Positions 1,793-38,086 of a stretch of 64,000 bases of DNA are shown piece after piece. The notes beneath the pieces are model-generated. The model was not told where the DNA came from. It searched no databases and saw only the letters and a list, made by a program, of their open reading frames with translations. Where the stretch lies: assembly GCA_963667015.2 (NCBI GenBank), contig CAXXJJ010000004.1, positions 3,808,001 to 3,872,000 on the forward strand, given 5' to 3'. The DNA comes from Desulfatiglandales bacterium (lineage in GTDB: Bacteria; Desulfobacterota; DSM-4660; Desulfatiglandales; HGW-15). Numbering within the stretch: position 1 is the first letter of the stretch; each line of letters opens with the position of its first letter. Position numbers and translations under genes: made by a program.

Positions 1793-3856
1793 TTAAAACG
1801 TCATCTTCAGGTTAACACCAAAGGCAGTACCGGGCATGGGAAACCCATACACCTCCTGATAATCTTTATCTAAAATATTAGTCGCATACACCCTCAGAAC
1901 TATATTTTCCGAATAGGCATGCTGGAAGCCAACATCAACAGTTGTGAAAGAATCAAGATTCATGACGTTGCCTTCGGTCTTCCTTTTACCTACAAACCGG
2001 ATATCGGATGTAATAAGCGTATTGCTGAACAAACTGTACCTTATACCAAGGTTTGCCTTATGCTTAGGCGCAATATTGATAAGAACTGCCTCGGCAAGAA
2101 TCTTTGACTGGTCATAATGGGTTTTTCTGAAGGTATAATTACCAAACAGCGTCAATTTTTCAAACAAATTGGCATTAAATTCAAGCTCTGTACCGTAAAA
2201 AATCATTTCATCCAGATTGTAGCCATAGGTGCTTGCATTGTGAAATGAGTCGCTCGAATTGGCTACAATATAGTTATCTACATCAATATAGTAAAACGCG
2301 AGTTTTGTATCCAGGTTTTTCATGGGACGATGAAACAATCCAAGATCATAATGCCAGCTTGTTTCATTATGAATTTCATCTCCCTTTTCCGTTGAGCCAA
2401 AACTGGCCCATGCTGAACGGTCTCAACAACCCGGGACATGATAATCCTTGTTTACCGACAGATAGAGCTGTGTGTCATCCGTGAACTTGTATGTAAGTGT
2501 AGACTTTGGAAGGAAAAGCCTTGTATAGATCAAATGCCTGTACTTTTCCGTTGTTCCGGGATCTGCATATGCATAGGTCCTTTCTCTGACATGTGTATAT
2601 CTCAATCCGAGAAATGCGGATAATTTTTCGCTGATGTTCCAGGTATCTTCAGCATAAAGGGCCTGCATACGCCATACATCTTCTGTTGACCCTGTTTCCA
2701 TTCTGCGCTGGTCATAACCTGTAAGAACAGAATGACCATCCCAGAAATCCATCTGGTACTGAAGTCTGCCGCCAATCTGTTTTTCCTCTCTGGCAGGGCC
2801 ACCGCTGTATAGCTGTGTCAGGGCACCACCGCTCAGAGTGTAGTAATAACTGTCTTCAGCACCGGATGTCTCATATATCTGAAACTTAAGTTTTGATTTA
2901 TCAAAAGGCTGCTCAAAGGAGAGATCAATGTGCTGCGCATGTTTATCCTTGTAATTGTCTCCACCGGGAAATGATATTGCACGGTATCTGCGGATGGTAT
3001 CCGCATCTTCAGGTACAATAGGATAGCCCGGATACCAGACATTGGAATATGTACTGTCCGGATCATTTACTACGGCATAGCCTACGTTTATCTGGGAATA
3101 TTTTATTCCCAGTGTAAGGTATCCTTCAAATGGAAAAAGATAGGAAAGCCTCCCTGAATAATCATAGCCGTCATAATCGTTATTTAAGAGATATCCGTCA
3201 GATCTTTTATAGCCATAGTTAAAGAAATAGCCGAGGTTCTTTACGCCGCCATCTACTGCTATTCTTGTTGTAAAGGTTCTGAATTTAGAAAGATCATTTA
3301 CGAAAGTTATCTTCGGCTTCAATGTATCCTTTTCTCTTCCCTTTCTGGTAATAATATTGATTATACCGCCCTGGGAATTCTCATACTGGGCCGAAGCAGC
3401 GCCACGGATAACCTCAATTTTTTCAATATCCGCACTGGTCAGGCTTGACCAGTCCACATATGTGTCCGCACCTGCGGTAGGACCGGTTATCGTCCTCCCG
3501 TCAATTGCTATTGTGAACCTGCTGTCGTCAAAACCCCTCATTAATACCATGGTCTGAGGATCTGCACCGGATGAGCCTCTCAAAACATCAATACCGGTGA
3601 GGTGCATCAGAATGTCTTCAACCCGTTCAACCGCCCCGCTCTTATCAAATGCCTCAATATCGATAACAGTTTTTGTAGGGGTAATTTTAACGGCCCCGCC
3701 ATGAAAGGCGGTAACAACTACCTCATCAAGTGTAAATTCATCCTCATTAAGGCAATCTCGATCCGGACATTCATCGTCAAACTGCCCAAAGGCAACCGGG
3801 CATGTCAGGAATAAGAGTGCACATAAGAAGAATATCAGCCTCCTAATACAATACAT
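1793..3856 (-). CDS. TonB-dependent receptor, 687 aa, with in-frame UGA at codon 478 (HVPGC-U-DRS), putative selenoprotein
   Basis: ORFs 2423..3856 and 1793..2338 share a frame and are separated only by TGA 2425-2423; TonB-box-like TLDEVVVTA, plug motif IEKIEVIRG, terminal Phe found only after read-through. Confidence 0.88.
2389..2420 (-). promoter_or_regulatory. SECIS-like hairpin after the TonB receptor UGA
   Basis: TGGGCCA-GTTT-TGGCTCA stem-loop starts 12 nt after UGA; lower stem CCGT/ACGG. Confidence 0.7.
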
Positions 3857-3880
3857 TAATAATAGCTCCTTTCTCTTTTT

Positions 3881-4837
3881 TTAATTTTCCGGCAGAAAAC
3901 TGTAATCCACTATCTTGTCTATAGATACCTTTTCCGGCAGATAGCCTATCTCCCGCATTATTGCCTGCTGGCGGTAGATGTTCTCTTCCGGTTCCCTGCC
4001 GTCACTGTATTCCCTGAGAGCAGACTTCATGGCCACCTCCATTTCCACTCCCGTATATTTTGGAATCCATTTTCTGGCTTTTTTTTCATTGGCCTTAATA
4101 TATTCAAAGGCCTTTATTAGTCCCCTTAAAAAGGCCCTCGCCTTTTCGGGATTTTTCTTCAGGTATTTATCGGTAAAAAACAATCCGCTGAAAACATACC
4201 CCGGTATTGCATCGTTAAATGATGTCAATAGCCTGCTCGCACCATGCACCTCCAGCATGGTCGCTGTAGGGTCTCAGGCAACTATTACATCAACACCCTT
4301 TGACCTTAAGGCTGCTTCGTGTTTCATGGAATCGTCAAGTTTGATTCCCTTGATTGCCCGGATATCATCTTTTTCCAGGCCGGCCTTTTTTAGTGTTTCA
4401 TTAAGAATCATGGCTGTTGTAATGGAACCGGATTCTGCGATCCTTTTCCCCTTCAGGTCCTCTATATTTTGAATATTGCTTTTCTGGTCAACATGAAGAC
4501 CGCATCTTGTGCCCTTGTGTGAGTGCCCCAGCCAGGCAACGACCTTTACAGGGATATTTCTCAAGCCTGCATGAAAGGCCCCTCCCAGGTCCAGGTGCCC
4601 GGCATCGATATCTTCATGTAATGCCGCTGCAATTATGTTGTGTTCACCAACAAGTCTGACCAGTTCAACCTTGAGGCCTTCCTTTTCCCAAAGGCCTTCT
4701 TCAAGGGCCACATACAAAGGGAGGTCATCAATACCGCGGCTGTATGTTATCTTCATGACATCATCAGCGCTCAATAAACTGGAAAAGAAAACGAGTGCTA
4801 TAAATGTAACCAGAATCGATAAATTCTTCTTTTTCAT
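3881..4837 (-). CDS. SsuA/NMT1-like ABC substrate-binding protein, 318 aa, with in-frame UGA at codon 188 (DVIVA-U-DPTAT), putative selenoprotein
   Basis: ORFs 4274..4837 and 3881..4258 share a frame and are separated only by TGA 4276-4274; signal peptide; DLKGKRIA motif; the joined length is typical for the family. Confidence 0.85.
4241..4261 (-). promoter_or_regulatory. SECIS-like hairpin after the SBP UGA
   Basis: Perfect 7-bp stem ACCATGC-TGGAGGT-GCATGGT starts 12 nt after UGA. Confidence 0.72.
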
Positions 4838-4880
4838 ATTTTTTCCTTAAACCTTATACCTTAAACCGCAAACCGTGCTT

Positions 4881-5657
4881 TTACGCCGATGTCTCAGCAA
4901 AAGAGGCATCCGTGTGCCATGAAAGAGCCTTTTTCTGGACCCATCTTGCTATTCTGTCCAACCCGAAACCCATAAGCGAAATTACAATAATACCGGCAAA
5001 CATCCTTTCTGTTGCAAACACCCTCTGGGCATCTATAACAAGAAACCCTATGCCCGAATCTGCAGCAAGCATCTCAACACCGACTATCGCCGTCATGGAC
5101 ATGGCTGTTGAAACTCTCATACCAGTTATAATCATAGGGAGGGCAGAGGGAATCAGAACCATTGTCCATATCTGGCGACCCCTTGCGCCAAGGGATCTTG
5201 CTGCCTGGATAAGGCGTGAATCAACTCCCTTTATCCCTGCGATGGTGTTCAGGACTATCGGGAAGAAACAGGCCTTTACTATAATGGCTGTTTTAGACCC
5301 GTTACCGATCCCGAACCATACAAACATTATGGGTACAAGGGCGAAGGTTGAGATTGGCCTGATGAGTTCAATAAGGGGATCAATGATTGTTTCACACACC
5401 CTTGACCATGCAACAAGCACCCCGATAGTAAGCCCCAGTACCGCCGCTATCAAATAGCCGCAGACAGCCCTGACAATACTTATCCCAATGTGCGGAAATA
5501 TCTCTCCGGATGCGGTCATTTCCCACAGACTCTTCAGCATGGCACTTGGTGCAGGAAAAAAGAACGGGTCGATAAGCCCACTGCGGCCAATAAGTTCAAA
5601 AATAACTAAAAGGCTTAAAGGGGAAATGAATTTTGAATACCGTTTCAGGGTGCTCAT
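4881..5657 (-). CDS. ABC transporter permease, SsuC/TauC-like
   Basis: EAA-like loop LIQAARSLGA, TM helices; ATG at 5657 overlaps the upstream stop (ATGA). Confidence 0.9.
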   Translation of the reverse strand: MSTLKRYSKFISPLSLLVIFELIGRSGLIDPFFFPAPSAMLKSLWEMTASGEIFPHIGISIVRAVCGYLIAAVLGLTIGVLVAWSRVCETIIDPLIELIRPISTFALVPIMFVWFGIGNGSKTAIIVKACFFPIVLNTIAGIKGVDSRLIQAARSLGARGRQIWTMVLIPSALPMIITGMRVSTAMSMTAIVGVEMLAADSGIGFLVIDAQRVFATERMFAGIIVISLMGFGLDRIARWVQKKALSWHTDASFAETSA

Positions 5658-6412
5658 TCCACCATTACCTCGGACCATATAATTCCCCTTATCTCTTTCT
5701 CATATTCCTTGAATTCAGGAGAAAAGAGCGTCTCCCTTATTCTCGGTCTCGGCAGATCAATCCTCATATCCGATATAATCCTGCCGGGTCTTGAACTCAT
5801 AATTACAACCCTGTCGGACAGAAAAACCGCCTCTGAAATGCTGTGAGTTACAAACAGTACAGTACACTTTTCCATCTGCCATATACGTAAAAGCTCTGCC
5901 TGGAGCATCTCCCGTGTCAGAGCGTCCAGTGCACCGAAGGGTTCGTCCATAAGCAGAACATCGGGATTATTTGCAAGTGCCCTGGCAATGGCCACCCTCT
6001 GTTTCATCCCGCCGCTCAGTTCATGGGGATACCGGTTTTCAAACCCCTGCAGGCCCACAAGGCTGATATAGTGATCAATGATTTTTTTACGTTCATGAGC
6101 AGGGACACCATTTACCCTGGGTCCGAATTCAATATTTTTTCCTACTGTCTGCCATGGAAAGAGCAGATATTCCTGAAAAACAATTGCACGTTTAGGATCA
6201 GGGCCGGTCACGGCCCTGCCATCACAATGAACTTCTCCTGATGTAAGGCTTTCGAGCCCTGCTACAATGAGAAGAAAGGTCGACTTTCCGCACCCGCTGG
6301 GGCCTATTATAGAAACAAACTCGTTGTTTCCTACAGAAAGATCCAGGTTTTCCAGTGCGACCACCTTTGCACGCCGGTTAAATTCCTTTGAGACGCCTCT
6401 GGCAACTATCAA
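5654..6412 (-). CDS. ABC transporter ATP-binding protein, SsuB/TauB-like
   Basis: Walker A GPSGCGKST, LSGGMKQR, LLMDEPFGALD. Confidence 0.93.
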   Translation of the reverse strand: MIVARGVSKEFNRRAKVVALENLDLSVGNNEFVSIIGPSGCGKSTFLLIVAGLESLTSGEVHCDGRAVTGPDPKRAIVFQEYLLFPWQTVGKNIEFGPRVNGVPAHERKKIIDHYISLVGLQGFENRYPHELSGGMKQRVAIARALANNPDVLLMDEPFGALDALTREMLQAELLRIWQMEKCTVLFVTHSISEAVFLSDRVVIMSSRPGRIISDMRIDLPRPRIRETLFSPEFKEYEKEIRGIIWSEVMVE

Positions 6413-6419
6413 AACCGGT

Positions 6420-7574
6420 TTATCTCCCTGCCCTTAACTGTTCCATGAAACCTTCGATTCGCAGCCTTAACTGGCCTGCATCAGACTGTGAATAATCCGT
6501 AACAATATGAAGAAAAGGCAGGCCATGTTTTTCCTTAACAAGTTCGCCAACACGATAGGATTCAATATTAAAGGTATGGCATGACTGCCATGTAAGGTCT
6601 ATTACACCGTCAATATTGAACTCACTGATCATGTAGTCTATATCATCAAACCTCTGATTATTAGGTGTCATACATGAACAGGTAACCCTTAAATAACGGT
6701 CTGCAATTGCATCAAGGGGATCCGTTTCCGTATCAATGGGGTCGTTCAGCCTTGTATATCCGCCGCAACCTTCCTGAGCCACAACAACTCCGCCCAGCTC
6801 CTCAACCATCCTTAAAACCTTATCGCATCCAAGGCTGTTTCCAAGCCCTGTCCAGAGTATTCTGGGCCTGCTCCTGTCGCAGGCATATTCCTGATTCACT
6901 AATCGCCGGTTAAGTTCATTCAATACATCCGATAATCTGGAGGTATATGTGGAACGGTCTATGGAATAACCCATTTTGGTGGTAAGAGACACCAGGTCCA
7001 GCCCCATGATTGGCGGAGGAGAAGATTTTCTGCACTGGTGGATTGCCTTTAGAAGAGCCCTTTCCCTGTTTCCCTGTTCAATTGCCTTTGAAAGCGCATC
7101 ATTCGTTATTTTCGTATCAAGCTGATCCTCAAGGAAGCATTTCATTTTTTCCACTTCACGGCGCCAGTGAGCCTGTGCTTCCTGATCATCAGGCTTTTGA
7201 GGAAGATCCATCACATGCATGGGTTTGTACCTTGATAAAAGCTCATACATCTTTTTTCTTCCGTCACATGTGGTTTCGCTTACGATACAGTCTGCAAGGG
7301 GGAAAATAGGACAGGAATTATTGACAGCCCTTCCGTATGTAGCTTTCACCATTGGGCATTGATCCGCGGGGAGAACCTGTTCGGCCGCCTCAATTGGCCC
7401 CTCGGTCGTCCCGCACAGACCGACAGTAACAGCGCCTGCGGCCCAGGCAATTTCTCTGGGAAAATAGGAACAGAGAGAACCTACAACTTTTTTGCCCTCA
7501 TCCTTTGCCATTTCAAGCTGCTGAGCGAAATCCGTCTTAACTTCATCAATTTTTTCTTTTACAGTCAGGTCCAT
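6420..7574 (-). CDS. Double-cubane-cluster protein (DCCP)-like reductase, 2-hydroxyacyl-CoA dehydratase family
   Basis: LCSYFP, GLCG, QCPMVK, CPIF, ETTCDGRKK, EGCGG, CSCMTPN, WQSCHTF, TDYSQSD. Confidence 0.85.
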   Translation of the reverse strand: MDLTVKEKIDEVKTDFAQQLEMAKDEGKKVVGSLCSYFPREIAWAAGAVTVGLCGTTEGPIEAAEQVLPADQCPMVKATYGRAVNNSCPIFPLADCIVSETTCDGRKKMYELLSRYKPMHVMDLPQKPDDQEAQAHWRREVEKMKCFLEDQLDTKITNDALSKAIEQGNRERALLKAIHQCRKSSPPPIMGLDLVSLTTKMGYSIDRSTYTSRLSDVLNELNRRLVNQEYACDRSRPRILWTGLGNSLGCDKVLRMVEELGGVVVAQEGCGGYTRLNDPIDTETDPLDAIADRYLRVTCSCMTPNNQRFDDIDYMISEFNIDGVIDLTWQSCHTFNIESYRVGELVKEKHGLPFLHIVTDYSQSDAGQLRLRIEGFMEQLRAGR

Positions 7575-7658
7575 GAACAATCCTCGCTTCCACATTCTTT
7601 TTCAGAGACAACTGGTATCTATATTTTTGAAGTGCACACTATTCAGGAAAAGTCAATG

Positions 7659-7710
7659 TGTCAAACTGGATTTTCCTATATATGACAAGCTTATGGTCGG
7701 GCAAACCGAT
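7659..7710 (-). promoter_or_regulatory. Shared operator/promoter, site 1 (DCCP-ABC-TonB operon)
   Basis: ATCGGTTTGCCCGAC-N16-ATAGGAAAATCCAGT-TTGACA. Confidence 0.8.
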
Positions 7711-7840
7711 ATTTGACATATTCTGTGATTTTTTTTTCTATTTAATAGACAATATGTCCTGATCAATCTAATTTACATGAAATATGACTTTAATGCTGCA
7801 AACAGCAAACTAAATATAGATAGTTTAAGATCAACCACCT

Positions 7841-7892
7841 AAAGGATTTTCCTATATATAATACAAAATTCATCGCTTATACCAGTTTGACA
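7841..7892 (+). promoter_or_regulatory. Shared operator/promoter, site 2 (porin-yedE operon)
   Basis: AAAGGATTTTCCTAT-N16-ATCGCTTATACCAGT-TTGACA. Confidence 0.8.
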
Positions 7893-8002
7893 TACCTAGC
7901 TTTCTTAACTAGATCTTATTTACTTTTAAGGATTAAACATAACTTAATCAAAAGAATTAAAAATCGATGAATGATTAATCTTTTTTCCTAAAGGAGGAGA
8001 AA

Positions 8003-9232
8003 ATGAACAGATTTGGCTTTTCTAAAAAATGGTTAATCTGCTTTTTTACTTTGCTGACATTTGGATTATTCTTATCAGTAAATGCATCCGGCGAGGAATC
8101 TTTAGGTGCCTCCATTAAAAATGGAAAGGTAAACGGGGAACTTAAAATCTGGTACCAGACAAATGACAATGATCTCAGTGGCAACAGCTTTCTTGACAAG
8201 GAAAACAGCATATTTGATGCCGGACTAAATCTTGGCTATACAACCGCCGGCTTCAAGGGTTTTAATATTGGGATCAATTTTTATGCAATAAATGACCTGG
8301 GAGCCTACGACAATTTTGCAAATAGCAGTATCCACGGTGTTAACCACAGTGAGACGACATCATGGCTTGGAGAGGCCTTCATAGCCTATAACAAAGAAAA
8401 TACGACAGTAAAACTCGGAAGGCAGAATATAAAATCCCCGCTTATTAACAGCGACGGCTGGGCAGTTTTTCCCAACAGCTTTGAGGCAATATTCTTCCAA
8501 AATAAAAGTTTAAGCGATACCAGTATTGTTGCATCCTATGTCACAAGGGAAAGAACCCTCAAGAGCCATACCTTTGAGGATTTTGTAGATGATGGGGGTT
8601 TTATGCTGGGTGCAGAAAACAAATTCTTTAAGGATCTTGCCCTGAGCGGATATTATTACCATATAAAGGGAGCTTCAGATATAAACTCAATTTATCTTCA
8701 GGCCGTTACAGAATATAAAAAGATAAATGTTTCAACACAGTATATGTTCTTTGACTCGGATGCAGCCAATTCCGACTCAACAAATGCTGTTGGAGTCCTT
8801 GTGTCAACTAAGATAGGAAATGTTGACCTGTCGGGTGCAGTAAGTACTGTTGATAAAGGCACATTAAATGCCGCAAAATTTTCAGATAACGGAATAAAGA
8901 CACCTCTCTACACTGCATCCATTTGTGCTGACGGTGATATTGCCTCTGCCACTGATACCGATGCCCTCAAAGTTTCAATAGGGTTTTCGCCAATGGAAAA
9001 ACTCAGCATAACCGGCACATTCGGCTACTATGACCATGGCAGCCACTCCTCAGCCAGTCCGAACAATGCGTCAACATCCGCAGAACTTGTTCTTAAATAT
9101 ACAGGGTTTAAAAACATGACGATCTTTGCAGCCTATGTAAACTCGGATCACAACGGAGTAGGCGGATGGAAAGGATGCACCTCCGAGGACTCACTTAATA
9201 CTCTAAGGATATGGGCCAGCTATAAATTCTAG
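8003..9232 (+). CDS. Outer-membrane porin, OprD-like
   Basis: Signal peptide, amphipathic beta strands, KLGRQ..SPL motif, C-terminal YKF. Confidence 0.75.
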   Translation: MNRFGFSKKWLICFFTLLTFGLFLSVNASGEESLGASIKNGKVNGELKIWYQTNDNDLSGNSFLDKENSIFDAGLNLGYTTAGFKGFNIGINFYAINDLGAYDNFANSSIHGVNHSETTSWLGEAFIAYNKENTTVKLGRQNIKSPLINSDGWAVFPNSFEAIFFQNKSLSDTSIVASYVTRERTLKSHTFEDFVDDGGFMLGAENKFFKDLALSGYYYHIKGASDINSIYLQAVTEYKKINVSTQYMFFDSDAANSDSTNAVGVLVSTKIGNVDLSGAVSTVDKGTLNAAKFSDNGIKTPLYTASICADGDIASATDTDALKVSIGFSPMEKLSITGTFGYYDHGSHSSASPNNASTSAELVLKYTGFKNMTIFAAYVNSDHNGVGGWKGCTSEDSLNTLRIWASYKF

Positions 9233-9272
9233 ATATCTCTTCTGAAAAACTTGAAAGAAGGAAGGAGCTGTT

Positions 9273-10361
9273 ATGTCACAGATAAAAAATTTTTTTGCAA
9301 CCAGATGGGGAATTATAAGTGTGGGTGCCTTTATAGGTATTCTGGCAGCACTGCTCCAGAAATGGGGAAATCCCGGAAATATGGGAATTTGTGTTGCCTG
9401 TTTTAACAGGGATATTGCAGGCGCTGTCGGGCTTCACAGGGCCGCTGTAGTTCAGTATATGAGACCAGAAATCATCGGTTTTGTTATCGGCTCCCTGGCG
9501 GCTGCACTGATCTTTAATGAATACAAATCAAGGGCAGGATCTGCTCCAATAGTAAGGTTTTTTTTAGGGGCATTTGCAATGATAGGGGCGCTTGTCTTTC
9601 TGGGCTGTCCATGGCGCGGCCTGCTCAGGCTTGCAGGCGGGGACTGGAATGCAATACTGGGCTTAGCCGGCCTGGTGGTGGGTATCTGGATCGGGACCCT
9701 TTTTCTCAAAAACGGCTATAACCTTGGAAGGAGCCAAAAGACATATGCCTCGGTAGGTCTTCTCATGCCAATACTTATGGCAGGATTTCTTGCGCTCATG
9801 TTTATATTTCCACAGGTTGAAGGCCAGGATAAAAACGATATACTCTTTTACAGCCTGAAAGGCCCCGGCGCAATGCATGCCCCGCTCATTGTTGCTCTTG
9901 TTGTAGGTTTTTTTGTCGGCTTTATTGCACAGAGAAGCCGTTTCTGCACAATGGGTGCGTTTCGGGATCTTTTGCTTTTCAGGCAGGCCCATCTGCTGCT
10001 TGGTATTATATCCCTTGTTATAGCCGCATTTGTTGTAAACCTTATAGTAGGCCAGTTTAAACCCGGATTTGAAGGTCAACCCGTTGCCCATACAATGCAT
10101 ATATGGAATTTTGCAGGGATGGTTCTTGCAGGTCTGGCATTCGCACTCGCCGGAGGATGTCCCGGACGCCAGCTATTTCTGGCAGGAGAAGGAGACGGTG
10201 ATGCAGCAGTCTTCGTATTCGGGATGATCACGGGTGCCGCATTTGCTCATAATTTCGGACTGGCCAGTTCACCGAAAGGTGTTGGGGCACACGGGATCGC
10301 GGCTGTAATAATAGGTTTAATAGTCTGCCTGTATATTGGCTTTACAATGAGACAAAAATAA
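9273..10361 (+). CDS. yedE: YedE family putative selenium/sulfur transporter
   Basis: GNPGNMGICVACF, FLGCPWR, QRSRFC, LAGGCPGRQL; multiple TM helices. Confidence 0.88.
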   Translation: MSQIKNFFATRWGIISVGAFIGILAALLQKWGNPGNMGICVACFNRDIAGAVGLHRAAVVQYMRPEIIGFVIGSLAAALIFNEYKSRAGSAPIVRFFLGAFAMIGALVFLGCPWRGLLRLAGGDWNAILGLAGLVVGIWIGTLFLKNGYNLGRSQKTYASVGLLMPILMAGFLALMFIFPQVEGQDKNDILFYSLKGPGAMHAPLIVALVVGFFVGFIAQRSRFCTMGAFRDLLLFRQAHLLLGIISLVIAAFVVNLIVGQFKPGFEGQPVAHTMHIWNFAGMVLAGLAFALAGGCPGRQLFLAGEGDGDAAVFVFGMITGAAFAHNFGLASSPKGVGAHGIAAVIIGLIVCLYIGFTMRQK

Positions 10362-10378
10362 GTAAAAAGGAGGATATT

Positions 10379-10597
10379 ATGGGAACTACAATAGATGCAA
10401 GAGGTTTGAGTTGTCCTCAGCCTGTACTTATGACGCTCGACAATATCAAGAAACAGAATAATGGAGAAATGGAGATTCTTGTTGATACCGAAACCTCAAA
10501 AGAAAATGTAAGCAGGGCTGCTACCAGCAAAGGGTGGCAGGTAACAGATGTAAAAGAAGAAGACGAGTGTTTCAGAATCTCAATAAGCAAGGGTTGA
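10379..10597 (+). CDS. TusA/SirA-like sulfur/selenium carrier protein
   Basis: IDARGLSCPQPV motif. Confidence 0.9.
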   Translation: MGTTIDARGLSCPQPVLMTLDNIKKQNNGEMEILVDTETSKENVSRAATSKGWQVTDVKEEDECFRISISKG

Positions 10598-10599
10598 TT

Positions 10600-11151
10600 T
10601 TGGGTATTTTAAAAGCTCTAAAGAAAAAAATATCAGGGCCTGAAAAAATAACAAAAAATGATCTGGGGCTCTTTGTCTTTGAAAACACCAGCGAGGTAAT
10701 CCGAGCAGAAAAGATATTAAAGGCGAATGGCTGGGAAATAAGAGTAATGGGTCCTCCGCCCGAGATAAGGAGCGGGTGTGACCTTGTTATTGAGTTCCCC
10801 CTGATAGAAGAACTCAACATCATCAGGCTGCTTAATGATAAAAATCTCACACCCATTGAGGTCGTTCCGGTTAACAGTCCACTGTTAAAACCGGTTAATC
10901 TATTTCAGGTAAAGGATTTCGGAAAGCACCTCATGGTGAGGGCAGCCAACATGAAACTGACCATTGACAAGGAAACCCTGATGATAGTCAATATATCCGG
11001 AGGGGGCTGCCCTGACGTCCCCTATCTGGCCCACGAGATGGTGGGAAAAAATTTATCAGACGCCCCCGATCCGGAAGATATCGGGCATACCCTGTGCGGG
11101 TATGCCCTTAAACTCGCCTATGAGGAGATAAAAAAACAATGCTTGCAGTAG
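10600..11151 (+). CDS. DUF3343-domain putative Se/S carrier protein
   Basis: VIRAEKILK, PPPEIRSGCD, SGGGCPDVP, TLCGY; probable TTG start at 10600. Confidence 0.7.
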   Translation: MGILKALKKKISGPEKITKNDLGLFVFENTSEVIRAEKILKANGWEIRVMGPPPEIRSGCDLVIEFPLIEELNIIRLLNDKNLTPIEVVPVNSPLLKPVNLFQVKDFGKHLMVRAANMKLTIDKETLMIVNISGGGCPDVPYLAHEMVGKNLSDAPDPEDIGHTLCGYALKLAYEEIKKQCLQ

Positions 11152-12002
11152 TGGGGACTGTCCCGATAAAGGGTTTTCCTCTTGTAGCAGGAGAAGTGAC
11201 CCTTGAGGATTATTCTATTGTTATAGAAGGACACAAGGTTCCGGTAAACCGCGGCACCCCGGCATTGATAGGGGCATCAATAGAAACCGCCCGGGTAAAG
11301 GGCGATGATAAGATGTTCGCATTTCTTGTGGGGGATATCGGGCTTGGAGACGGAAGCAGGAAACTTTATAAATATCTTTCCGAAAATTTAAGCAAATATG
11401 ATTTTGATGTGATTACCTTTCATTATCTTCAGCCTGATACTGACTGGCATAACAGGGTCCTGTTTTCTTTGGAAGATATGAAAAAGAGACCGTTTCTTAT
11501 TGCTGATGCAGGATTTATGTATGCAGCAAAAATGAGCGGGCAGGCTTCTGAATATGACCTTTTTACCCCGGATGCAGGAGAACTGGCCTTTCTTGCAGAT
11601 GAAGAAGCCCCTCATCCCTTTTATACAAGGGGATTTATCCTCCACGAGGACAATAATACCCCGGACCTGATAAGCCGCGCCTACAGCCATGATAATGCGG
11701 CAAAATATCTCCTGGTAAAAGGAAAAAAAGATTATATTGCAAATAACAAAGGGATTATAGGCCATGTTGAAGAACCCTCGGAAGAGACAATGGAGGCAAT
11801 AGGCGGAACAGGCGATACCCTGACCGGTATAGTCTCTTCCCTTATAGCATCAGGCATGGAAACAGTTGAGGCATCCATATCAGCGGCCAGGATAAACAGG
11901 CTGGCAGGTCATTATACAAAACCTGACCCGTCCACGCAGATCATGGATATCATCAGAAATATTTCCTCTTCCGCAGAGACGGCCGATCGGGCAAAGGTAT
12001 AA
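11139..12002 (+). CDS. Ribokinase-fold, NAD(P)H-hydrate dehydratase-like protein
   Basis: IADAG, FTPDAGEL, LLVKG, IGGTGDTLTG. Confidence 0.72.
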   Translation: MLAVVGTVPIKGFPLVAGEVTLEDYSIVIEGHKVPVNRGTPALIGASIETARVKGDDKMFAFLVGDIGLGDGSRKLYKYLSENLSKYDFDVITFHYLQPDTDWHNRVLFSLEDMKKRPFLIADAGFMYAAKMSGQASEYDLFTPDAGELAFLADEEAPHPFYTRGFILHEDNNTPDLISRAYSHDNAAKYLLVKGKKDYIANNKGIIGHVEEPSEETMEAIGGTGDTLTGIVSSLIASGMETVEASISAARINRLAGHYTKPDPSTQIMDIIRNISSSAETADRAKV

Positions 12003-12006
12003 ATAT

Positions 12007-12231
12007 ATGGAAAAAAATAAAATAAAAATTTCCCCGGATATGACCGTGCTCGATATTGTATCAAACAATAAAAACACAATTGAAATATTCCAAGGCTATG
12101 ATGAACAGGCAGGTGAATGCATATGCTGCGAATCCCTTTTTGAAACCCTTGACAAGGTAGCGGAGAAATATGGTATTGACCATAATAAATTATTAAATGA
12201 CCTTAATGCCGTGTGTCCTGAAGACACTTGA
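12007..12231 (+). CDS. Small DUF1858-like Cys-rich protein
   Basis: ISPDMTVLDIV...CICCESLFETL. Confidence 0.6.
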   Translation: MEKNKIKISPDMTVLDIVSNNKNTIEIFQGYDEQAGECICCESLFETLDKVAEKYGIDHNKLLNDLNAVCPEDT

Positions 12232-12263
12232 TCGGGAGTCGCTACAGGGGATGGAAAAGCAGA

Positions 12264-13070
12264 ATGAAAGATAATAAGATTTTTTTTGCAGGGATTGATA
12301 TCGGTTCCATGACCACAAAGTGTGTAATCATGGGTAACAACGGGGTAACAGGCAGTATTGTCTTACCTACAGATTCAGCACCAAAGGTTTCCGGTGTAAA
12401 TGCGCTGGAAACAGTATTGACTAAAATCGGCATAGACAGATCATCTGTTTCTTATATTGTAGGAACCGGTTACGGCAGGATATCCCTTGACCTTTTTGAC
12501 CATACGGCAACAGAACTTACATGCCATGCAAAGGGCGTAATGCATGTGAACCGTGATGTTTATGGAATCATTGATATCGGCGGCCAGGACAGTAAGGCCA
12601 TAAAGCTTAAACCAGACGGCACCATAATGGATTTTGTTTTAAATGACAGGTGCGCTGCAGGTACCGGTCGTTTTCTTGAGGTAATGGCCAATGCCCTTAA
12701 ACTGGATTTAGATGAATTTGGCGAACTGTACGAAAAGTCCGATAGTCCCTGCCCCATAAACAGTACCTGTATTGTATTTGCCGAATCAGAGGTAATATCA
12801 CTTTCCGCACAGGGTGAATCAAAGACCGACATAGCGGCAGGCCTTCATCAGAGCATTGCAAAACGAGTTGGGAATATGGCAAAAAGACTCGGCATAAAAG
12901 AGAAGATAGCGTTTGTCGGCGGGGTGGCAAAAAACAATGGTATGAGACGCGCGCTTGAGGATTACATGGGGATAAAATTTGTTTCCCTTTCAGGCGATCC
13001 CCAGATTACCGGGGCATTAGGAGCAGCAGTCATTGCACGGAATCAGTTTGTTAAGAGACATGAAAACTAA
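12264..13070 (+). CDS. ATP-dependent [4Fe-4S] activase (acyl-CoA dehydratase activase/DCCP-reductase type)
   Basis: GIDIGS, GTGYGR, DIGGQDSK, NDRCAAGTGRFLE, CIVFAESE, GGVAKN. Confidence 0.9.
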   Translation: MKDNKIFFAGIDIGSMTTKCVIMGNNGVTGSIVLPTDSAPKVSGVNALETVLTKIGIDRSSVSYIVGTGYGRISLDLFDHTATELTCHAKGVMHVNRDVYGIIDIGGQDSKAIKLKPDGTIMDFVLNDRCAAGTGRFLEVMANALKLDLDEFGELYEKSDSPCPINSTCIVFAESEVISLSAQGESKTDIAAGLHQSIAKRVGNMAKRLGIKEKIAFVGGVAKNNGMRRALEDYMGIKFVSLSGDPQITGALGAAVIARNQFVKRHEN

Positions 13071-14755: not shown

Positions 14756-17700
14756 TTAATAAAGCCATGCTCTAAGTATAGAAAACAACCTCTCCTTTTC
14801 AAAGGGTTTGGAGAGATAATCACTTGCCCCGGCCTCCAGACATTTTGCACGATCGCCCTTCATCGCCTTGGCTGTAAGAGAAATAATGGGCAGGCTTGCA
14901 AAAATTTTCTGTTTCCGGATTTTTTTAATTGCTGTAAAGCCATCCATCTCCGGCATCATCATATCCATTATGACAAGATCAATATCATGGTTATTTCTTA
15001 GACAGTCCAGGGCTTCATAGCCGTTCTTTGCTACAAGAACCCTCATGCCTTTCTGCTCCAGGATATTTGTCACCACGAAAACATTGCGCATATCATCATC
15101 TGTAAGAAGTATCTTTTTATCCTTAAATATTGACTCCTTATCATTGATAAGCCGCAGCATCTTTCTTTTTTCTTCAGGAAGCTTTGATTCTGCCAGATGT
15201 ATGTACAAAGAGACTTCTGCCAATAGTTTTGCAGGGGAATTTACGCCTTTTACGATAATGCTTTCTGTATATTCATCAAGGATTGCCCGTTCATGGGCAG
15301 TGAGTTTTTTTCCAGTGTACACAATAATAGGAGAAGCAAACCTGGACCGGTTATTTTTTATTGCTGAAAGTATCTCAAAACCGGACATGTCCGGAAGCGA
15401 TAGATCCAGAATAACACAATCAAAACCTGTATCTGCGAGCTTTTCCATTGCCTCTTCGCCGGTTGATACGTTGACTATCCTGACACCCGTGCCATCAAAC
15501 AGTTTTTCTATTATTTTTCTTGTAACCAGATTATCTTCAACTAAAAGAATACTTTTATCAGATTTTGAAATTATCTTTTCAATATCTGTGAACAGTTTTT
15601 CCAGGTCTTCCATGCTGACAGGCTTTTGTATAAAATCTGCAGCCCCCATCTTCATGGCTTCACGTGAACTGTCAGACGCCGAAATAAAATAAACCGGTAT
15701 ATGTCTAGTTTCATTATTTTCCTTAAGGCGCGTCATTACGGTCCAGCCGTTGACAACAGGAAGCTTTATATCCAGAATTATAGCAGAAGGTTTATAAATT
15801 TCTGCTAGATGAAGGCCGGCCTTACCGTCCTGTTCAATAACAACTTTTAATCCCTTTTTTCGGAAAAAATCTCTCAGGGCTTCAGTAAACTTTGGATCAT
15901 CATCGATTATCAAAATTGAATTATCATTTTCCGATATTCCATCCCGATCATCAGATACGATCTGACCAGTTTTATCCGTCTTTTCATGTTTTTTTCCTGC
16001 GGCTGTATCCTGTAACGGATCATTTCTATCGGACAACCCATTGATAACATCATCTGTAACCAGAGAGAGCCTCGGTGATTCCGGAAGGTATAAAATAAAG
16101 GTAGCCCCTTTCCCAGACTTGCTTTCAGCCTGTATTTCACCTCCGAGGATGCCGGCAAGCTCCTTTGATATTGATAATCCCAAACCGGTACCTCCATATT
16201 TTCTGCTTGTAGAACCATCTGCCTGCTGAAAGGCGTCAAAAATAAGACTAAGTTTTTCTTTGGGGATGCCAATACCTGTATCGGAAACAGCAAAGGAAAT
16301 GCATTGATCATGCCTTAATCCGCTCAGGGACAGATCTGTTTTTCTGTCCGGCCTGCTGATCCTTAGCTCTATTCCTCCACGCGATGTGAATTTGAATGCA
16401 TTTGATAACAGATTTTTTAAGACCTGTTCAATTCTCTGGCTGTCAGACCGTATTACCGGGGGAAGGCCATCATCTATAGATATAGTGAAACTTATATTTT
16501 TCTCCGCTACAACCGGTTTAAAATTCCTTTCGACCGCGTTTGTTATTTCAATTAACGGAACATCCTCAATATTCAGTTCTACTTTTCCGGATTCAACCTT
16601 TGAAAGATCAAGTATCTCATTTATAAGTTTTAACAGATCATATCCCGAAGACTGAACGGATTTTGCATATTCAACCTGCTTTTCTGTCAGATTTTCATCC
16701 CTGTTGTCTGAAAGAAGCTGAGATAAAAGGATAATGCTGTTGAGCGGAGTTCTTAACTCATGAGACATGTTTGCCAGAAACTGGGATTTATACTGACTTG
16801 CAATCTCAACTTCCTTTGCCCTGTCTTCAAGGAGCCGACGCGCTTCTTCCAGTGCGAGGTTTTTCACTTTCATATCTTCTTTCTGTTTTTCCAGGATCTG
16901 CGTCTGCTCTTTCAGCACCTCATTCTTTTGTTTTAATTCTTCCTGCTGTATCTTGAGCCTTTCCTCAGATTCTTTGTGGGCCTTTGTCTCTTCCTCAAGT
17001 TTTTCATTAGCCTTCCTCAGGTCCTCCTGCTGTTTTTTAAGTTCCTCTGCCTGCGATAGAGTCTTTTCAAGAAATTCATCCATTTTCTGTCGCGACTGGG
17101 CATTATCCAGGGCTATTGCTATACTTTTTGAGAGAAAATCAAATAAATCCCTGATTCTTTCAGGAAAGCCATATATAGTTCCCACCTCAATAATAACCAT
17201 GGTATCTCCATTATCATCAGGGATGGGTACTATTAAGATGTTTCTGGGGACCATTTCTCCCAGGCCTGAACTGATGGTTAAATGATCGTCAGGGACATCC
17301 GTGAGATTAATAATTATTTTTTCAAGTGCTACCTGACCCAGGAGTCCTTCCCCTGGTTTGAACTCTTCGGCATTGCTGTTTTTGCTTCGCGCATATGCGT
17401 AGCTTCCATATAATCTGAATGTACTGTTTTCCCGGATATATATTATACCGGTTTGGGCGTTAACGTATTCGCAAACAAATGTAATTATCCTGCCGCAAAG
17501 ATCAGTGACACCCTGAGCCTTTCTCATCCCCTCAATAAGTGCAAACCGCCCGTTATTAAGCCAGGCCTGATAATCATTTTCTTCCATGGCATCTTTCAAT
17601 TTCAATATTATATCATTGAGAGATAATGCCAGTGCCCCGATCTCATTATCTGTACTGATTTCTATTATCTGGTCAAATTTACCCGATGCCGCCTGTCTGG

Positions 17701-17950
17701 CGCTCCTTAAGAGCTTTTCAATGGGGTCAGAAATACCTTTAGCCGCAATAAAGGCCAGTAAAGTGACAAAAATTATAAGTAGAACAATAAGATATATTGA
17801 AGCATGCGCATAATCGAAATACCGGTCAACAACTATAGGAATTAATGCAATTACCAAAAACCATAACAGAAGAGATTTAAATAATCTACCGGCATAGAAC
17901 AAACTAAAAATTACAGATCTGTCTTTATCATTGCTGTCATTGGCAGTCAT
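14756..17950 (-). CDS. Hybrid histidine kinase (HAMP-GAF-HK with three REC domains)
   Basis: FLANMSHELRTPLN, NLLSNAFKFT, GGTGLGL, three receivers. Confidence 0.93.
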   Translation of the reverse strand: MTANDSNDKDRSVIFSLFYAGRLFKSLLLWFLVIALIPIVVDRYFDYAHASIYLIVLLIIFVTLLAFIAAKGISDPIEKLLRSARQAASGKFDQIIEISTDNEIGALALSLNDIILKLKDAMEENDYQAWLNNGRFALIEGMRKAQGVTDLCGRIITFVCEYVNAQTGIIYIRENSTFRLYGSYAYARSKNSNAEEFKPGEGLLGQVALEKIIINLTDVPDDHLTISSGLGEMVPRNILIVPIPDDNGDTMVIIEVGTIYGFPERIRDLFDFLSKSIAIALDNAQSRQKMDEFLEKTLSQAEELKKQQEDLRKANEKLEEETKAHKESEERLKIQQEELKQKNEVLKEQTQILEKQKEDMKVKNLALEEARRLLEDRAKEVEIASQYKSQFLANMSHELRTPLNSIILLSQLLSDNRDENLTEKQVEYAKSVQSSGYDLLKLINEILDLSKVESGKVELNIEDVPLIEITNAVERNFKPVVAEKNISFTISIDDGLPPVIRSDSQRIEQVLKNLLSNAFKFTSRGGIELRISRPDRKTDLSLSGLRHDQCISFAVSDTGIGIPKEKLSLIFDAFQQADGSTSRKYGGTGLGLSISKELAGILGGEIQAESKSGKGATFILYLPESPRLSLVTDDVINGLSDRNDPLQDTAAGKKHEKTDKTGQIVSDDRDGISENDNSILIIDDDPKFTEALRDFFRKKGLKVVIEQDGKAGLHLAEIYKPSAIILDIKLPVVNGWTVMTRLKENNETRHIPVYFISASDSSREAMKMGAADFIQKPVSMEDLEKLFTDIEKIISKSDKSILLVEDNLVTRKIIEKLFDGTGVRIVNVSTGEEAMEKLADTGFDCVILDLSLPDMSGFEILSAIKNNRSRFASPIIVYTGKKLTAHERAILDEYTESIIVKGVNSPAKLLAEVSLYIHLAESKLPEEKRKMLRLINDKESIFKDKKILLTDDDMRNVFVVTNILEQKGMRVLVAKNGYEALDCLRNNHDIDLVIMDMMMPEMDGFTAIKKIRKQKIFASLPIISLTAKAMKGDRAKCLEAGASDYLSKPFEKERLFSILRAWLY

Positions 17951-18090
17951 TATGTGTCAATTCCTGTCTCAAAGATGTTACAAAAAACTATATTTTAATT
18001 CATTAATAAGACATAATGCTTTATGATAAGGCTTAATTAGTTTCCAATTAGTGCCTCAAAACTGTTTATGGATGGGCACTAATTAAATAT

Positions 18091-18106
18091 AGCAAAATCC
18101 CTGCCA
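18091..18106 (-). promoter_or_regulatory. Sigma-54 -24/-12 promoter for the hybrid kinase operon
   Basis: TGGCAGGGATTTTGCT (GG-N10-GC). Confidence 0.6.
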
Positions 18107-29668: not shown

Positions 29669-30808
29669 CTATAGCATTTCGATATAGGCCTCTATTCTAA
29701 CCCGGAGCTGTCCGGTATCGCTCTCGGAATAATCCGTTTCCAGGTGCAGCGACGGAACGCCCAGGAGCTCCTGGACCAGCTCATCCACCATAAAGGCTTC
29801 AATGTTGTAGGTGTGGCAGGCCTGCCAGGTGAGATCGATTACGCCGTCAACAGAGAAATCCCTGATTATTTCGGAAAGGAGATCAAACCTGCCATTATTG
29901 GGACTCATAACCGAGCAGGGGGTCCTAAGATACTGTTCGGCCAGGGCATCCATGGGGTCTTTATCCTCTGCGACCTGGAAGGCCTGCTTGTAACCGGAAC
30001 AGCTCTCAAAGGCAACCACGTCTGCCCCGATCTGCTCAACTATCCTGATAACCTTTTCACTCCCGATTCCGACCGGAACACCGGTAAGGAGAATTCTTTT
30101 TTTATTGTTGCCGCTTTCCACCGGGGAGGCTGTTTCATGGTGCTTTATAACTTCCTGCATCAGATCGATACCTTTTTCCTTGTTCGCCAGAAACCCAACC
30201 TTTAAAGAGGACCTCGAGCAGTTGCGTAAACCTGGAAGCGGCGCGGGTATTGGCTTTATTGATAGGTCCATCAGGGCCTTTCTTGTCATGCGTTCCCTGT
30301 TCATCAGCCCTATGGCATCCTTTAGTTTATCCTGAGTGTAATCGTTACACCGGTCAGTTGTTCCACAATGGCCTTGAAATGATGCAGCTCATTTTTCCAT
30401 GCTGCAAGCGCCAGTGTCATCATCCTGCAGTGAAGGCAATTGCATCACGTGGGTTGTCTTGGTTCGGTTCAACAGTTCGAACATCTTCTTTTTACCGTCG
30501 CAGGTAGTGTCACCTATGATAATATCGGAAAAGGCGAAAAAAGGGCAGGTATCAGTAATTGCAAATCCATAGCTCGATTTGATCAGCGGGCATAGGTTGC
30601 GCGGAAGCACATCTTCGGCTGCGGTTATGGGGTTGTTGCTGGTGCCGCACAGGGGCAATGGAATAGCGCCGGCGGCAACGGCTATCTCCATGGGAGAATA
30701 GAGGCAGTAGTATCCTACAGCGGCTCTGCCGTCCTTTTTCATCTGTTCAATATCCTCAGGATTCTGATCCATGGCCTGCTGGAGTCTTGTCATCAGTTTT
30801 TCAGTCAT
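29669..30808 (-). pseudogene. Second DCCP-like reductase, frameshifted around 30300-30400
   Basis: N-part YCLYSP, LCPLIKSSYG, TTCDGKKK; C-part ESCSG, WQACHTY, ETDYSESD in a separate ORF. Confidence 0.82.
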
Positions 30809-31942: not shown

Positions 31943-32290
31943 TTAGTTTAAAAGGTTTTCTGACTTCAGGCGGCCAATGATTTCCGTTGTGGATTTAAGC
32001 CGATCCATGGTGTAAAAGTGAAGTCCGGGAACCCCTTTTTCAAGCAATCCCCGACACTGCTCAACGGCAAAGTCAATTCCCAGATCCAGTACAGCATCTT
32101 TATCTTCCGGGTCCACTGCATCGAGTTTTTGCTGAAGTGCTTCAGGTATAGACGACCTGCAGACTTTGGACAGCATCTGGGTCATCTTTACCGTATACAC
32201 CGGCATAATGCCCGGAATGATCGGAACATTGATCCCCATAGCCCGGCATTTATCGACAAAATTAAAGTAGTAGTCATTGTCGTAGCAATT
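31943..32290 (-). pseudogene. metF: C-terminal remnant of methylenetetrahydrofolate reductase
   Basis: YDNDYY, VPIIPGIMP, GLHFYTMDR; N-terminal part missing. Confidence 0.8.
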
Positions 32291-32367
32291 AGGAGACACA
32301 GGTAAAAAGGCAACTTAAACTGGCTGACCTCATGCCTTTTTACTCCTGCTCTTACTCCAACAATTAA

Positions 32368-32721
32368 TCACGATATGGCATTCCTTAAGCTCTGCCTGTA
32401 ATAATAACCCTCAACCGTTTTAAAAAATGTTTCCACATTATCAAGGTCAACGTTGGGAGCCAGGTCGCATCCTGAAGAAATTACAAAATTATTAAACATG
32501 GCACATTTATTTAAAAGTTTGAGAGTTTCAATCCTTACAAAATCCGAATTACTGGAATTAAAAACCTTGGCAGGACTTATATTCCCCATCACAAGATAAT
32601 TCCTTGGCAGATGTTCAAGCATCGGAAGTATATCCACAGAATCCCCCGGGAATGTTAAGATGGGTAATGCTTTTTTTCTTTCTGTATATATAATCTGTTC
32701 AATCCAATTGTACATATTCAT
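32368..32721 (-). pseudogene. Internally deleted UroD/MtaA-family methyltransferase
   Basis: N-terminal LPILTFPG joined to C-terminal VMGNISP and ISSGCDL; only 117 aa. Confidence 0.7.
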
Positions 32722-37920: not shown

Positions 37921-37942
37921 CTTAAAAAAGCAAAAACTAATA

Positions 37943-38066
37943 TCTCGCCCGCTTCGCTAGAGTCCGCAGAGATCGCAGAGAAAAGCAAAAATATTTTTTT
38001 ATTTTTTCTTTAAAACATAAATCGTTTTTCTCTGTGTCCTCTGTGAGCGCAGCGAATGGGCGAGAG
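37943..38066. repeat. MITE-like palindromic element, copy 1
   Basis: TCTCGCCC...GGGCGAGA ends with internal CGCAGAG/CTCTGTG arms; related copy at 60802-60925. Confidence 0.65.
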
Positions 38067-38086
38067 AAAATTTTATAAGGATTACA

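Follow-up and report, generated by a model that had tools for sequence, protein, structure and literature searches.

A divergent locus that sets a predicted selenoprotein importer and a double-cubane cluster protein beside a YedE selenium cassette in a Desulfatiglandales bacterium

Gene content of the divergent locus

We analysed a stretch of 64,000 nucleotides from a Desulfatiglandales bacterium (assembly GCA_963667015.2, contig CAXXJJ010000004.1, positions 3,808,001 to 3,872,000; hereafter the 64-kb window), in which two operons diverge between positions 1793 and 13070. The left operon runs from the gene for a double-cubane cluster protein (DCCP1) through the ATPase, permease and periplasmic binding protein of an ATP-binding cassette (ABC) importer to a TonB-dependent outer-membrane receptor. 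The right operon runs from a porin through YedE, a TusA-like carrier, a DUF3343 protein, a ribokinase-fold protein (hereafter the kinase-fold protein) and a DUF1858 protein to an activase of the HgdC/DCCP-R type. Coordinates are positions within the window, and gene content was taken from a listing of open reading frames (ORFs) together with hidden Markov model (HMM) scans over 1793-13070. All 12 genes were found and each matches its family (Table 1), so the gene identities that an earlier note had assigned to both operons are right.

The comparisons described below show two modules, each conserved separately and found apart in other genomes, whose junction at this locus is lineage-specific. 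The locus is best read as a rare TonB/ABC importer armed with selenocysteine (Sec) and accompanied by its own DCCP, joined head to head to a common YedE cassette in part of one genus. With a confidence just short of even, we take it for a selenium-acquisition island in which the activase energises DCCP1 and the latter likely brings imported or carrier-bound selenium down to selenide, the level that SelD requires.

Table 1. Features of the divergent locus, with family matches and model cut-offs
Feature	Position	Strand	Family match
TonB-dependent outer-membrane receptor, CU-motif type, predicted Sec478	1793-3856	-	NF049946 TonB_dep_CU
Periplasmic binding protein, NMT1/SsuA type, predicted Sec188	3881-4837	-	distant SaoX relative
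ABC permease, TauC/SaoP-like	4881-5678	-	PF00528; SaoP model 168.7 bits, under cut-off 295
ABC ATPase, best-matching family SaoA	5654-6412	-	NF040729 270.9 bits, under cut-off 360
DCCP1, double-cubane cluster protein, predicted [8Fe-9S] reductase	6420-7595	-	NF040772 472 bits vs 350
Divergent intergenic spacer, 407 nt, with exact 16-nt direct repeat	7596-8002		
Opr-family outer-membrane porin	8003-9232	+	NF033923 76 bits, under cut-off; OprD Pfam match weak
YedE-family putative selenium channel	9273-10361	+	TIGR04112 493.7 bits vs 200
TusA-like carrier, 72 aa, Cys12 in CPxP motif	10379-10597	+	PF01206 69.4 bits
Extended DUF3343 (Se/S carrier) protein	10654-11151 (ORF opens 10534)	+	PF11823 77.3 bits vs 25
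Ribokinase-fold (YjeF_C/Carb_kinase-like) protein, GGTGDT motif	11139-12002	+	PF01256 48.3 bits vs 27
DUF1858 / hybrid-cluster-protein-associated redox-disulfide domain protein	12007-12231	+	TIGR03980 41.4 bits, PF08984 27 bits, both slightly under cut-off
HgdC/DCCP-R-type ATP-dependent activase	12228-13070	+	TIGR00241 260.7 bits vs 125.4

Two predicted selenoproteins in the left operon

The genes of the receptor and of the binding protein each contain a single in-frame TGA codon. In the receptor it lies at 2423-2425 and corresponds to U478 of a PGC-U motif, so that TGC-TGA would be read as a Cys-Sec dipeptide (residues 477-478). With 1099.8 bits on NF049946 against a cut-off of 700, and with the plug (PF07715) and barrel (PF00593) domains present, this receptor is a full member of the CU-motif type. 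The TGA of the binding protein, at 4274-4276, corresponds to U188 in an A-U-D-P motif. Both codons are conserved, that of the receptor in 10 of 10 relatives (33-79% protein identity) and that of the binding protein in 8 of 8 orthologues (46-86%), with homology on both sides of the codon in each case.

Searching a collection of 5.8 billion proteins returned 83 relatives of the binding protein, about 80 of which are fragments of 177-229 aa that cover only the first 49-59% of the query. The gene calls therefore stopped at the Sec codon, and the family is misannotated in nearly all database clusters (about 80 of 83). The only close homologue of full length, P0005, is 53% identical and carries a Cys at the position of Sec188. 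A hairpin of 7 bp resembling a selenocysteine insertion sequence (SECIS) begins 12 nt past the TGA of the binding protein (about 4239-4264; -14.5 kcal/mol). It does not vary among the 8 orthologues, synonymous sites included, even though protein identity falls to 46%. No compensatory change was seen across these orthologues, and taken alone the hairpin is unexceptional (z -0.5). For the receptor, RNAalifold gave a poor alignment of 10 sequences with a helix of 4 pairs, and the single-sequence fold reached a z of -1.1. Since the receptor hairpins did not align, the evidence for Sec in the receptor is the conserved TGA together with the match to the NCBIfam model. The conserved TGA, the Cys homologue and the SECIS-like hairpin make the binding protein a predicted selenoprotein. 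The genome has a SelD gene away from the locus (C1:1618368-1619294); it contains one in-frame TGA, so that selenophosphate synthetase is itself a predicted selenoprotein in this organism.

The binding protein reaches 117 bits on SsuA_fam (cut-off 163.5) and 61.8 bits on SaoX (cut-off 300), and no NCBIfam equivalog covers it. It looks undescribed, and we read it as a Sao-like paralogue outside the SAO (selenocysteine-assisted organometallic) system. It also has a conserved GHSHKGTxCG stretch (His-x-His...Cys).

Recurrence of the left module

A phylum sample of 401 genomes was used for the genome-level counts of YedE, DCCP and TonB_dep_CU. TonB_dep_CU receptors above cut-off were found in only four of these genomes, at five loci (the genome studied here, G000; G275 twice; G369; G402), always with one TGA. 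A DCCP lies within 4 kb of the receptor at four of the five; at the fifth (G275:C112) just activase fragments stand beside it. The full order of DCCP, ATPase, permease, Sec-bearing binding protein and CU receptor is present in G275 and G402, whose DCCP is 67% identical to DCCP1 and which have an activase upstream of the module, directly upstream in G402. In G369 the ABC part and the receptor each adjoin a DCCP. The module with both TGA codons, next to a DCCP, recurs in three other families, and within the genus it is found in G003, G006 and G008 and partially in G002. A quick maximum-likelihood tree of 40 DCCPs placed DCCP1 in a clade of six with 100% support, all six of them ABC-linked. Apart from G046, the six weaker TGA-bearing receptors are not beside a DCCP or are in genomes that have none.

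At its other sites the left module has TonB/ExbB/ExbD, polyferredoxins and an unassigned protein of about 600 aa behind it. This last protein, which has no Pfam family above cut-off, follows the CU receptor in G275 and G402 (L041:10468-12270 and L137:7649-9457); a protein of 706 aa in G369 (L042:572-2692) likewise matches no Pfam family. Beside the receptor in the window there is no counterpart.

A widespread YedE cassette forms the right module

An alignment of the kinase-fold protein was scanned over the GTDB species genomes and gave at least 580 confirmed loci; the cassette counts are taken from the best 80. By title these are mostly delta-proteobacterial/Desulfobacterota, with a few Nitrospirae and one Omnitrophota. 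DUF3343 stands around the kinase-fold gene in 78 of the 80 loci and TusA in 73, DUF1858 follows it in 34, and a second TusA-like gene is present in 17. YedE was found in 66 loci, and in 54 of the 56 where upstream room exists. The order YedE, TusA-like, DUF3343, kinase-fold gene is kept in 14 of 20 YedE loci from the 401-genome sample (six chosen for a near DCCP, six for an unlisted DCCP position, seven as top-scoring controls and one from the same genus). The right module is thus a widespread cassette of fixed order in hundreds of genomes.

All other ORFs around the cassettes were clustered and one representative per cluster was annotated. The commonest neighbours among the 80 loci were SelD (27), YedF (15), a selenium LysR regulator (LysR_Sec_metab, 12) and an ABC ATPase (10). 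Because selD, yedF and the selenium LysR regulator are what surrounds the cassette, a selenium rather than a sulfur context of the right module is well supported.

These data bear on whether the substrate could be a sulfur compound such as a sulfonate, thiosulfate or polysulfide, which would enter through the SsuA-like ABC system and a YeeE-like channel and be carried as persulfide by TusA and DUF3343. The binding protein does belong to the SsuA/NMT1 family, YedE is related to thiosulfate transporters with weak matches to TsuA, and Lin et al. (2015; PMC5322559) saw no selenium-specific DUF3343 branch. However, on the selenium-linked model TIGR04112 the window YedE reaches 493.7 bits, compared with about 41 bits on TsuA, the cassette has the selenium neighbours just named, and both uptake proteins are themselves predicted selenoproteins, so that a sulfur substrate seems highly improbable. 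The earlier note had left the imported substrate as a selenium or a sulfur compound; the selenium half of that proposal agrees with the neighbourhood, and the sulfur half is unlikely.

The window YedE is the single match to TIGR04112 above cut-off in its genome, and a porin precedes YedE also in G003, G004, G008 and L134. One YedE orthologue of the phylum sample (G299:C108:11885-12916) has an in-frame TGA, in agreement with a Sec-containing form of YedE listed in a table of a 2026 review.

The TusA-like protein covers positions 1-68 of the 194 of TIGR03527 (58.9 bits, under the cut-off of 110) and so represents only the N-terminal third of YedF; a full-length YedF is encoded elsewhere in the genome (C4:2768238). 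The DUF3343 protein, whose conserved part begins well inside its ORF, has an extra conserved C-terminal domain. Its invariant Cys residues are at 42, 119 and 148 of the trimmed protein (alignment A3), one of them in a PPPE.R.GCDL stretch. In a model with a predicted local distance difference test score (pLDDT) of 88, the C-terminal domain had no Foldseek match at E <= 0.001, and the best hit of a VIA-wide search (IscU, Z 6.1 over 79 residues) was within the noise level.

The kinase-fold protein has an invariant GGTGDT motif (alignment A1) and the ribokinase-like nucleotide-binding GxGD signature. The best Foldseek match of its model (pLDDT 91) was the YjeF family structure 6efx (E 2e-8, TM score 0.59), and it stays under the equivalog cut-offs of TIGR00196 (YjeF_C; 42.6 vs 129.85) and NF006830 (ThiM; 27.6 vs 180). 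It is a divergent, separate and unnamed ribokinase-like subfamily, nearest to YjeF, and the signature gene of the cassette.

The DUF1858 protein has Cys at 38, 40, 41 and 70, and DUF1858 precedes DCCP in L019, L026, L040 and L053. Four cassette loci (L066:2447-3514 and three others) carry, immediately after the kinase-fold gene, a fusion of DUF1858 with a CbiR-like, xylose-isomerase-like TIM barrel. In G275 a TIM barrel from this Pfam family occurs as a separate gene between DCCP and activase (L041:2608-3435).

DCCP and activase recur beside selenium genes

With thresholds of E <= 1e-40 for YedE and E <= 1e-95 for DCCP, YedE was found in 163 and DCCP in 144 of the 401 genomes (both in 62, YedE only in 101, DCCP only in 82, neither in 156). 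The two genes lie within 10 kb of each other in 10 of the 62 genomes that carry both (G000, G070, G108, G116, G126, G128, G153, G155, G190 and G354), which represent 8 genera and 8 families; by a rough estimate, chance would give about 0.5 genomes. In the linked loci DCCP and activase usually lie directly before or after the cassette. Seven genomes with unlisted positions were inspected and showed no linkage (G086, G150, G288, G053, G169, G314 and G363), and in the other 45 the listed places are on different contigs or far apart.

On the quick tree the YedE-linked DCCPs are scattered (4 changes; 204 of 500 shuffles equally low). Linkage therefore originated more than once and does not mark a single clade, and a DCCP clade specific for YedE, which we had considered, was rejected for the same reason.

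Twenty further DCCP loci were picked among the high-scoring matches because they are not beside YedE. Full-length YedF stands beside DCCP or activase in six of them, the kinase-fold gene together with DUF1858 in one, DUF1858 in one and a Sao-like ABC system in three. All 10 tested 'second TusA' genes are above the TIGR03527 cut-off (151-237 bits) and are full-length YedF. YedF and DCCP are a tighter recurring pair than YedE and DCCP. Taken together, DCCP and activase are linked to the cassette or to YedF far above chance and in many families. The loci at which full-length YedF directly adjoins DCCP or activase with no YedE nearby are L038, L040, L043, L045, L047, L054 and L017-L020.

The recurrence of DCCP beside YedF and DUF3343, carriers that have no obvious role for a substrate there, would also be expected if the DCCPs themselves needed selenium, for example in a selenium-bridged variant of the [8Fe-9S] cluster, and if the carriers delivered selenium for maturation of the cofactor. 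Haft and Gwadz (2022, bioRxiv), who built the model NF040772, name this as a formal possibility that would explain why 955 of 970 high-scoring DCCPs occur in genomes with SelD. The solved DCCP structures are, however, described as containing Fe8S9 clusters in the accounts consulted, and 82 of the 144 sampled genomes with DCCP have no TIGR04112 YedE, so that we regard a selenium requirement of the DCCPs themselves as quite improbable.

DCCP1 and the activase

DCCP1 aligns over 362 residues with the solved DCCPs (6eno_A and 7yyl_C; E about 1e-81) and keeps all seven Cys columns of the cluster (C42, 61, 80, 110, 277, 306 and 339). Its Cys spacers are 18, 18, 29, 166, 28 and 32. Used as a regular expression, the literal motif of the preprint (CX19CX18-19CX29CX166-170CX32-34CX32C) did not match DCCP1, in which the first and fifth spacers are shorter. 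The activase matches PDB 1hux (E 2e-56) and 7yyl_E (E 2e-50). Because DCCP1 and the activase match the 6eno/7yyl proteins, they are predicted to form an ATP-driven low-potential reductase with an [8Fe-9S] cluster.

The likely true start of the activase is the ATG at 12264, since homologues align from residue 12-20 on; the gap from DUF1858 to this start is only about 30 nt. The activase lies 4.6 kb from DCCP1, in the opposite operon. It is 56% and 58% identical to the activases beside the DCCP1-type genes of G275 and G369, but 37% to that of G402; identities to activases beside YedE-linked DCCPs are 36-43%. On these values a pairing of the window activase with DCCP1 is plausible. An orthologue (71-77% identical) is present in 5 of 5 genomes of the genus that were searched.

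The divergent spacer

The spacer of 407 nt contains an exact 16-nt direct repeat, GGATTTTCCTATATAT, at 7668-7683 and 7844-7859. A sigma-70 consensus scan of the spacer returned 0 sites against 2.8 expected, and the spacer aligns poorly with the orthologous spacers of G003 and G008 from the same genus. The shared operator that the earlier note had placed in front of both operons was thus not confirmed, with no sigma-70 site in the spacer and weak conservation in these two genomes. A third copy of the 16-mer with 2 mismatches is found at 18085-18100 on the minus strand, about 135 nt upstream of a hybrid histidine kinase gene (14756-17950). On its own this copy is not significant, since at least 3 matches occurred in 15 of 100 shuffles; it hints that the kinase/GGDEF pair and the divergent locus may share a regulator.

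Other selenium-related genes and DCCPs of the window

All three DCCPs above cut-off in the genome of 7.2 Mb lie within the window. DCCP2 (29669-30808, minus strand) consists of two ORFs joined by one TGA. It was rejected as a selenoprotein, as residues 133-165 around the TGA do not align with an orthologue of 63% identity, and the region looks like a local frameshift or a pseudogene. Next to it, at 31943-32721 on the minus strand, short ORFs match C-terminal parts of methylenetetrahydrofolate reductase and of a methylcobalamin:coenzyme M methyltransferase-like protein. These ORFs may represent disrupted genes or belong to an mlp-type (methyl-selenide) cluster. DCCP3 (476.8 bits) is followed directly by its own activase (36643-38839, plus strand, with the activase at 38087-38839), and its closest relatives in other genomes adjoin a YedE cassette (G116) or DUF1858 (G240).

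A series of selenium-related genes lies between 18311 and 29605. It encodes YqeB, which belongs to selenium-dependent molybdenum cofactor maturation, and an OS_HP2 family (seleno)protein, followed in this list by the three subunits of a molybdenum hydroxylase, a selenium-associated IscA/HesB protein and a UshA-like PCGU (seleno)protein that has a cytochrome-like tail fused to it.

Do the two operons belong together?

A number of findings weigh against the reading of the locus as a selenium-acquisition island. Presence of YedE and presence of DCCP are uncorrelated over the 401 genomes (odds ratio 1.17, p 0.52), and 52 of the 62 genomes with both families keep the genes apart. Among the 80 cassette loci DCCP was found in 5 and the activase cluster in 4; just 6 have one or the other and 74 have neither, and of the 25 loci whose flanks are long in both directions, 2 contain DCCP or activase. 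In turn, no YedE cassette accompanies the left module in G006, G275, G369 and G402. The activase ends the right operon only in G000 and G003, two of six genomes of the genus. In G002, G004 and G008 its orthologue is convergent to a GGDEF regulator/histidine kinase/YqeB block like that of the window, and neither a cassette nor a DCCP is found within some 10 kb; the G006 orthologue directly adjoins YqeB, away from both modules. G004 keeps the orthologue in a genome where searches gave no TonB_dep_CU above cut-off and only a DCCP of the DCCP3 type. Finally, the left importer could carry a soft metal rather than selenium, as the GHSHKGTxCG stretch plus Sec of the binding protein and the CU of the receptor suit both.

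Two points of the earlier note have to be narrowed accordingly. The reductase and its ATP-dependent partner in opposite operons, which it had described for the locus, are a reasonable pairing in this genome and not a conserved arrangement, because the activase orthologue lies elsewhere in four genomes of the genus. The gene neighbourhood of DCCP and yedE, which it had proposed as a check, does show linkage in 10 of 62 genomes from 8 families; it comes with no co-occurrence at the genome level and with 74 of 80 cassettes lacking both DCCP and activase.

One way to account for these findings is that the operons are functionally unrelated, the cassette, the left module and a stand-alone activase having been gathered by rearrangement in a selenium-rich island. 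Positions in the genus are indeed fluid (G006 has the left module by itself, G004 and G001 have the cassette by itself, and in four of six genomes the activase lies elsewhere), YedE and DCCP do not co-occur at the genome level, and the window is an island of selenium genes (YqeB, OS_HP2, IscA_HesB_Se, the UshA-like selenoprotein family and two more DCCPs). We nevertheless consider this improbable, since DCCP or activase has become a neighbour of YedE cassettes or YedF independently, across at least 8 families and several DCCP clades, and since the activase follows DUF1858 so closely.

The second account is a serious rival, although we rate it as unlikely: the left module would import a soft metal, a metalloid or an organometallic compound, with Sec and Cys as metal ligands, and DCCP1 would reduce or cleave it. 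The YedE cassette would then be adjacent merely because the module needs selenium for its own selenoproteins, or through island formation. The ABC parts match best or near best on SaoA, SaoP and SaoX; SaoX has the same UxP Sec motif in the table of the 2026 review; the His-x-His...Cys plus Sec of the binding protein and the CU of the receptor are typical ligand sets for soft metals; and Haft and Gwadz (2022) argue likewise for SAO in the text of their preprint. The four genomes that have the left module away from a YedE cassette point in the same direction, as do the flanks in G369 and G275:C112, which are polyferredoxins and TonB/ExbBD and not selenium genes. Against it, the locus has no SaoL (MerB-like), SaoB, efflux pump or other SAO marker, and HMM scans of 1793-13070 found no MerB-like, efflux, DsrE-like or thioredoxin-like gene. 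The genome gave no SaoX above cut-off and no match to SaoB, although the SaoB search is weak, as control genomes gave none either. Moreover, three genomes of the genus have the left module and the selenium cassette fused head to head, and the DCCP family tracks SelD and YedF.

A possible route for selenium

We return to the selenium-acquisition island. Under this reading the receptor and the binding protein would use their Cys/Sec pairs to capture a selenium species that is in short supply, which the ABC system would import. YedE would let in a small selenium anion that came through the porin, and the selenium would be bound by the Cys carriers TusA-like and DUF3343. The activase would spend ATP to reduce DCCP1, which would then provide electrons of very low potential that release selenide for SelD. 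Reduction of imported or carrier-bound selenium by DCCP1 is, we infer, the most economical mechanism. It is in keeping with the strong reductants that elemental selenium is described as requiring on its way to selenide (PMC9820544).

Haft and Gwadz (2022) call the natural substrate of double-cubane reductases unknown in their preprint, the text of which proposes, among other options, that DCCP processes selenium compounds; reduction of a selenium compound by DCCP is thus an idea that the literature already contains. TonB, YedE and DUF3343 each have 0 occurrences in the text of that preprint, whose supplementary profiling tables may list YedE, YedF or TonB families. In Lin et al. (2015), a STRING table puts an activase and HGD subunits with YedE/YedF/DUF3343 in Slackia, and the accessible text of the article mentions them nowhere else. 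The figures of a 2023 preprint on mlp clusters show DCCP and its reductase in selenium gene clusters.

If the proposed route is true, the double-cubane reductase would gain its long-sought natural role. A bolder claim, about which we are doubtful, is that DCCPs are the missing low-potential step of bacterial selenium assimilation, converting elemental or carrier-bound selenium to selenide for SelD with the help of ATP, and that the Sec receptor and binding protein form the first dedicated high-affinity route for scavenging selenium, through Se-Se or Se-S bonds. The locus makes these open questions testable through named proteins: the reductase, the activase, the Sec binding protein, the Sec receptor and the YedE cassette. 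The five-gene YedE cassette itself is present in hundreds of genomes, and its ribokinase-fold and extended DUF3343 members match no NCBIfam equivalog.

Comparison with known systems

The YeeE/YeeD (TsuA/TsuB) thiosulfate pair handles sulfur. It likewise consists of a membrane protein of the YeeE/YedE family followed by a TusA-like Cys protein, which is a family relation only; to our knowledge, it comes without a kinase-fold gene, DUF3343 or a reductase.

Our literature search found no paper on the module of DCCP, ABC importer, Sec binding protein and CU receptor, or on the five-gene cassette. The YedE/YedF/DUF3343/LysR_Se genes described by Lin et al. (2015; PMC5322559) belong to the same families and the same type of neighbourhood as the locus. 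In its accessible text the article does not discuss a reductase, the ribokinase-fold gene, DUF1858 or a fixed order of the cassette. Unlike the genes described there, the TusA-like protein of the locus is an N-terminal third of YedF, and its DUF3343 has an extra conserved domain with two Cys.

The DCCP/DCCP-R of Carboxydothermus hydrogenoformans (PDB 6ENO, 7YYL; Jeoung & Dobbek) are matched in sequence by DCCP1 and the activase of the locus. No natural substrate is known for the characterised DCCP, nor is it described together with transporters, whereas here DCCP heads an importer operon with two predicted selenoproteins and the activase is encoded in the opposite operon.

The SAO system resembles the locus in its ABC importer, its Sec binding protein with a UxP motif, its CU motifs and the adjacent DCCP and activase; in the preprint of Haft and Gwadz (2022) DCCP is within 5 kb in 21 of 52 SAO loci. 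Membership in the system (saoTECXLBPAD) was rejected, as the ABC parts are under the cut-offs of SaoA, SaoP and SaoX (270.9 vs 360, 168.7 vs 295 and 61.8 vs 300) and the cassette genes SaoL, SaoB, SaoC, SaoD, SaoE and SaoT were not found in the locus. The permease of the locus differs further in having no in-frame TGA, and the locus adds a TonB-dependent Sec receptor. SaoX and SaoB are the only Sec-bearing ABC substrate-binding subunits listed in the table of the 2026 review.

A selenoprotein of the TonB receptor type was reported in the deep-Sep study (2025; PMC12013277), and such receptors are covered by NF049944-NF049947, with the receptor of the locus being a full NF049946 member. In the parts of that study consulted, an alignment of Sec and Cys forms is given and no link to DCCP, whereas here the CU type stands beside a DCCP at most of the sampled loci, four of five.

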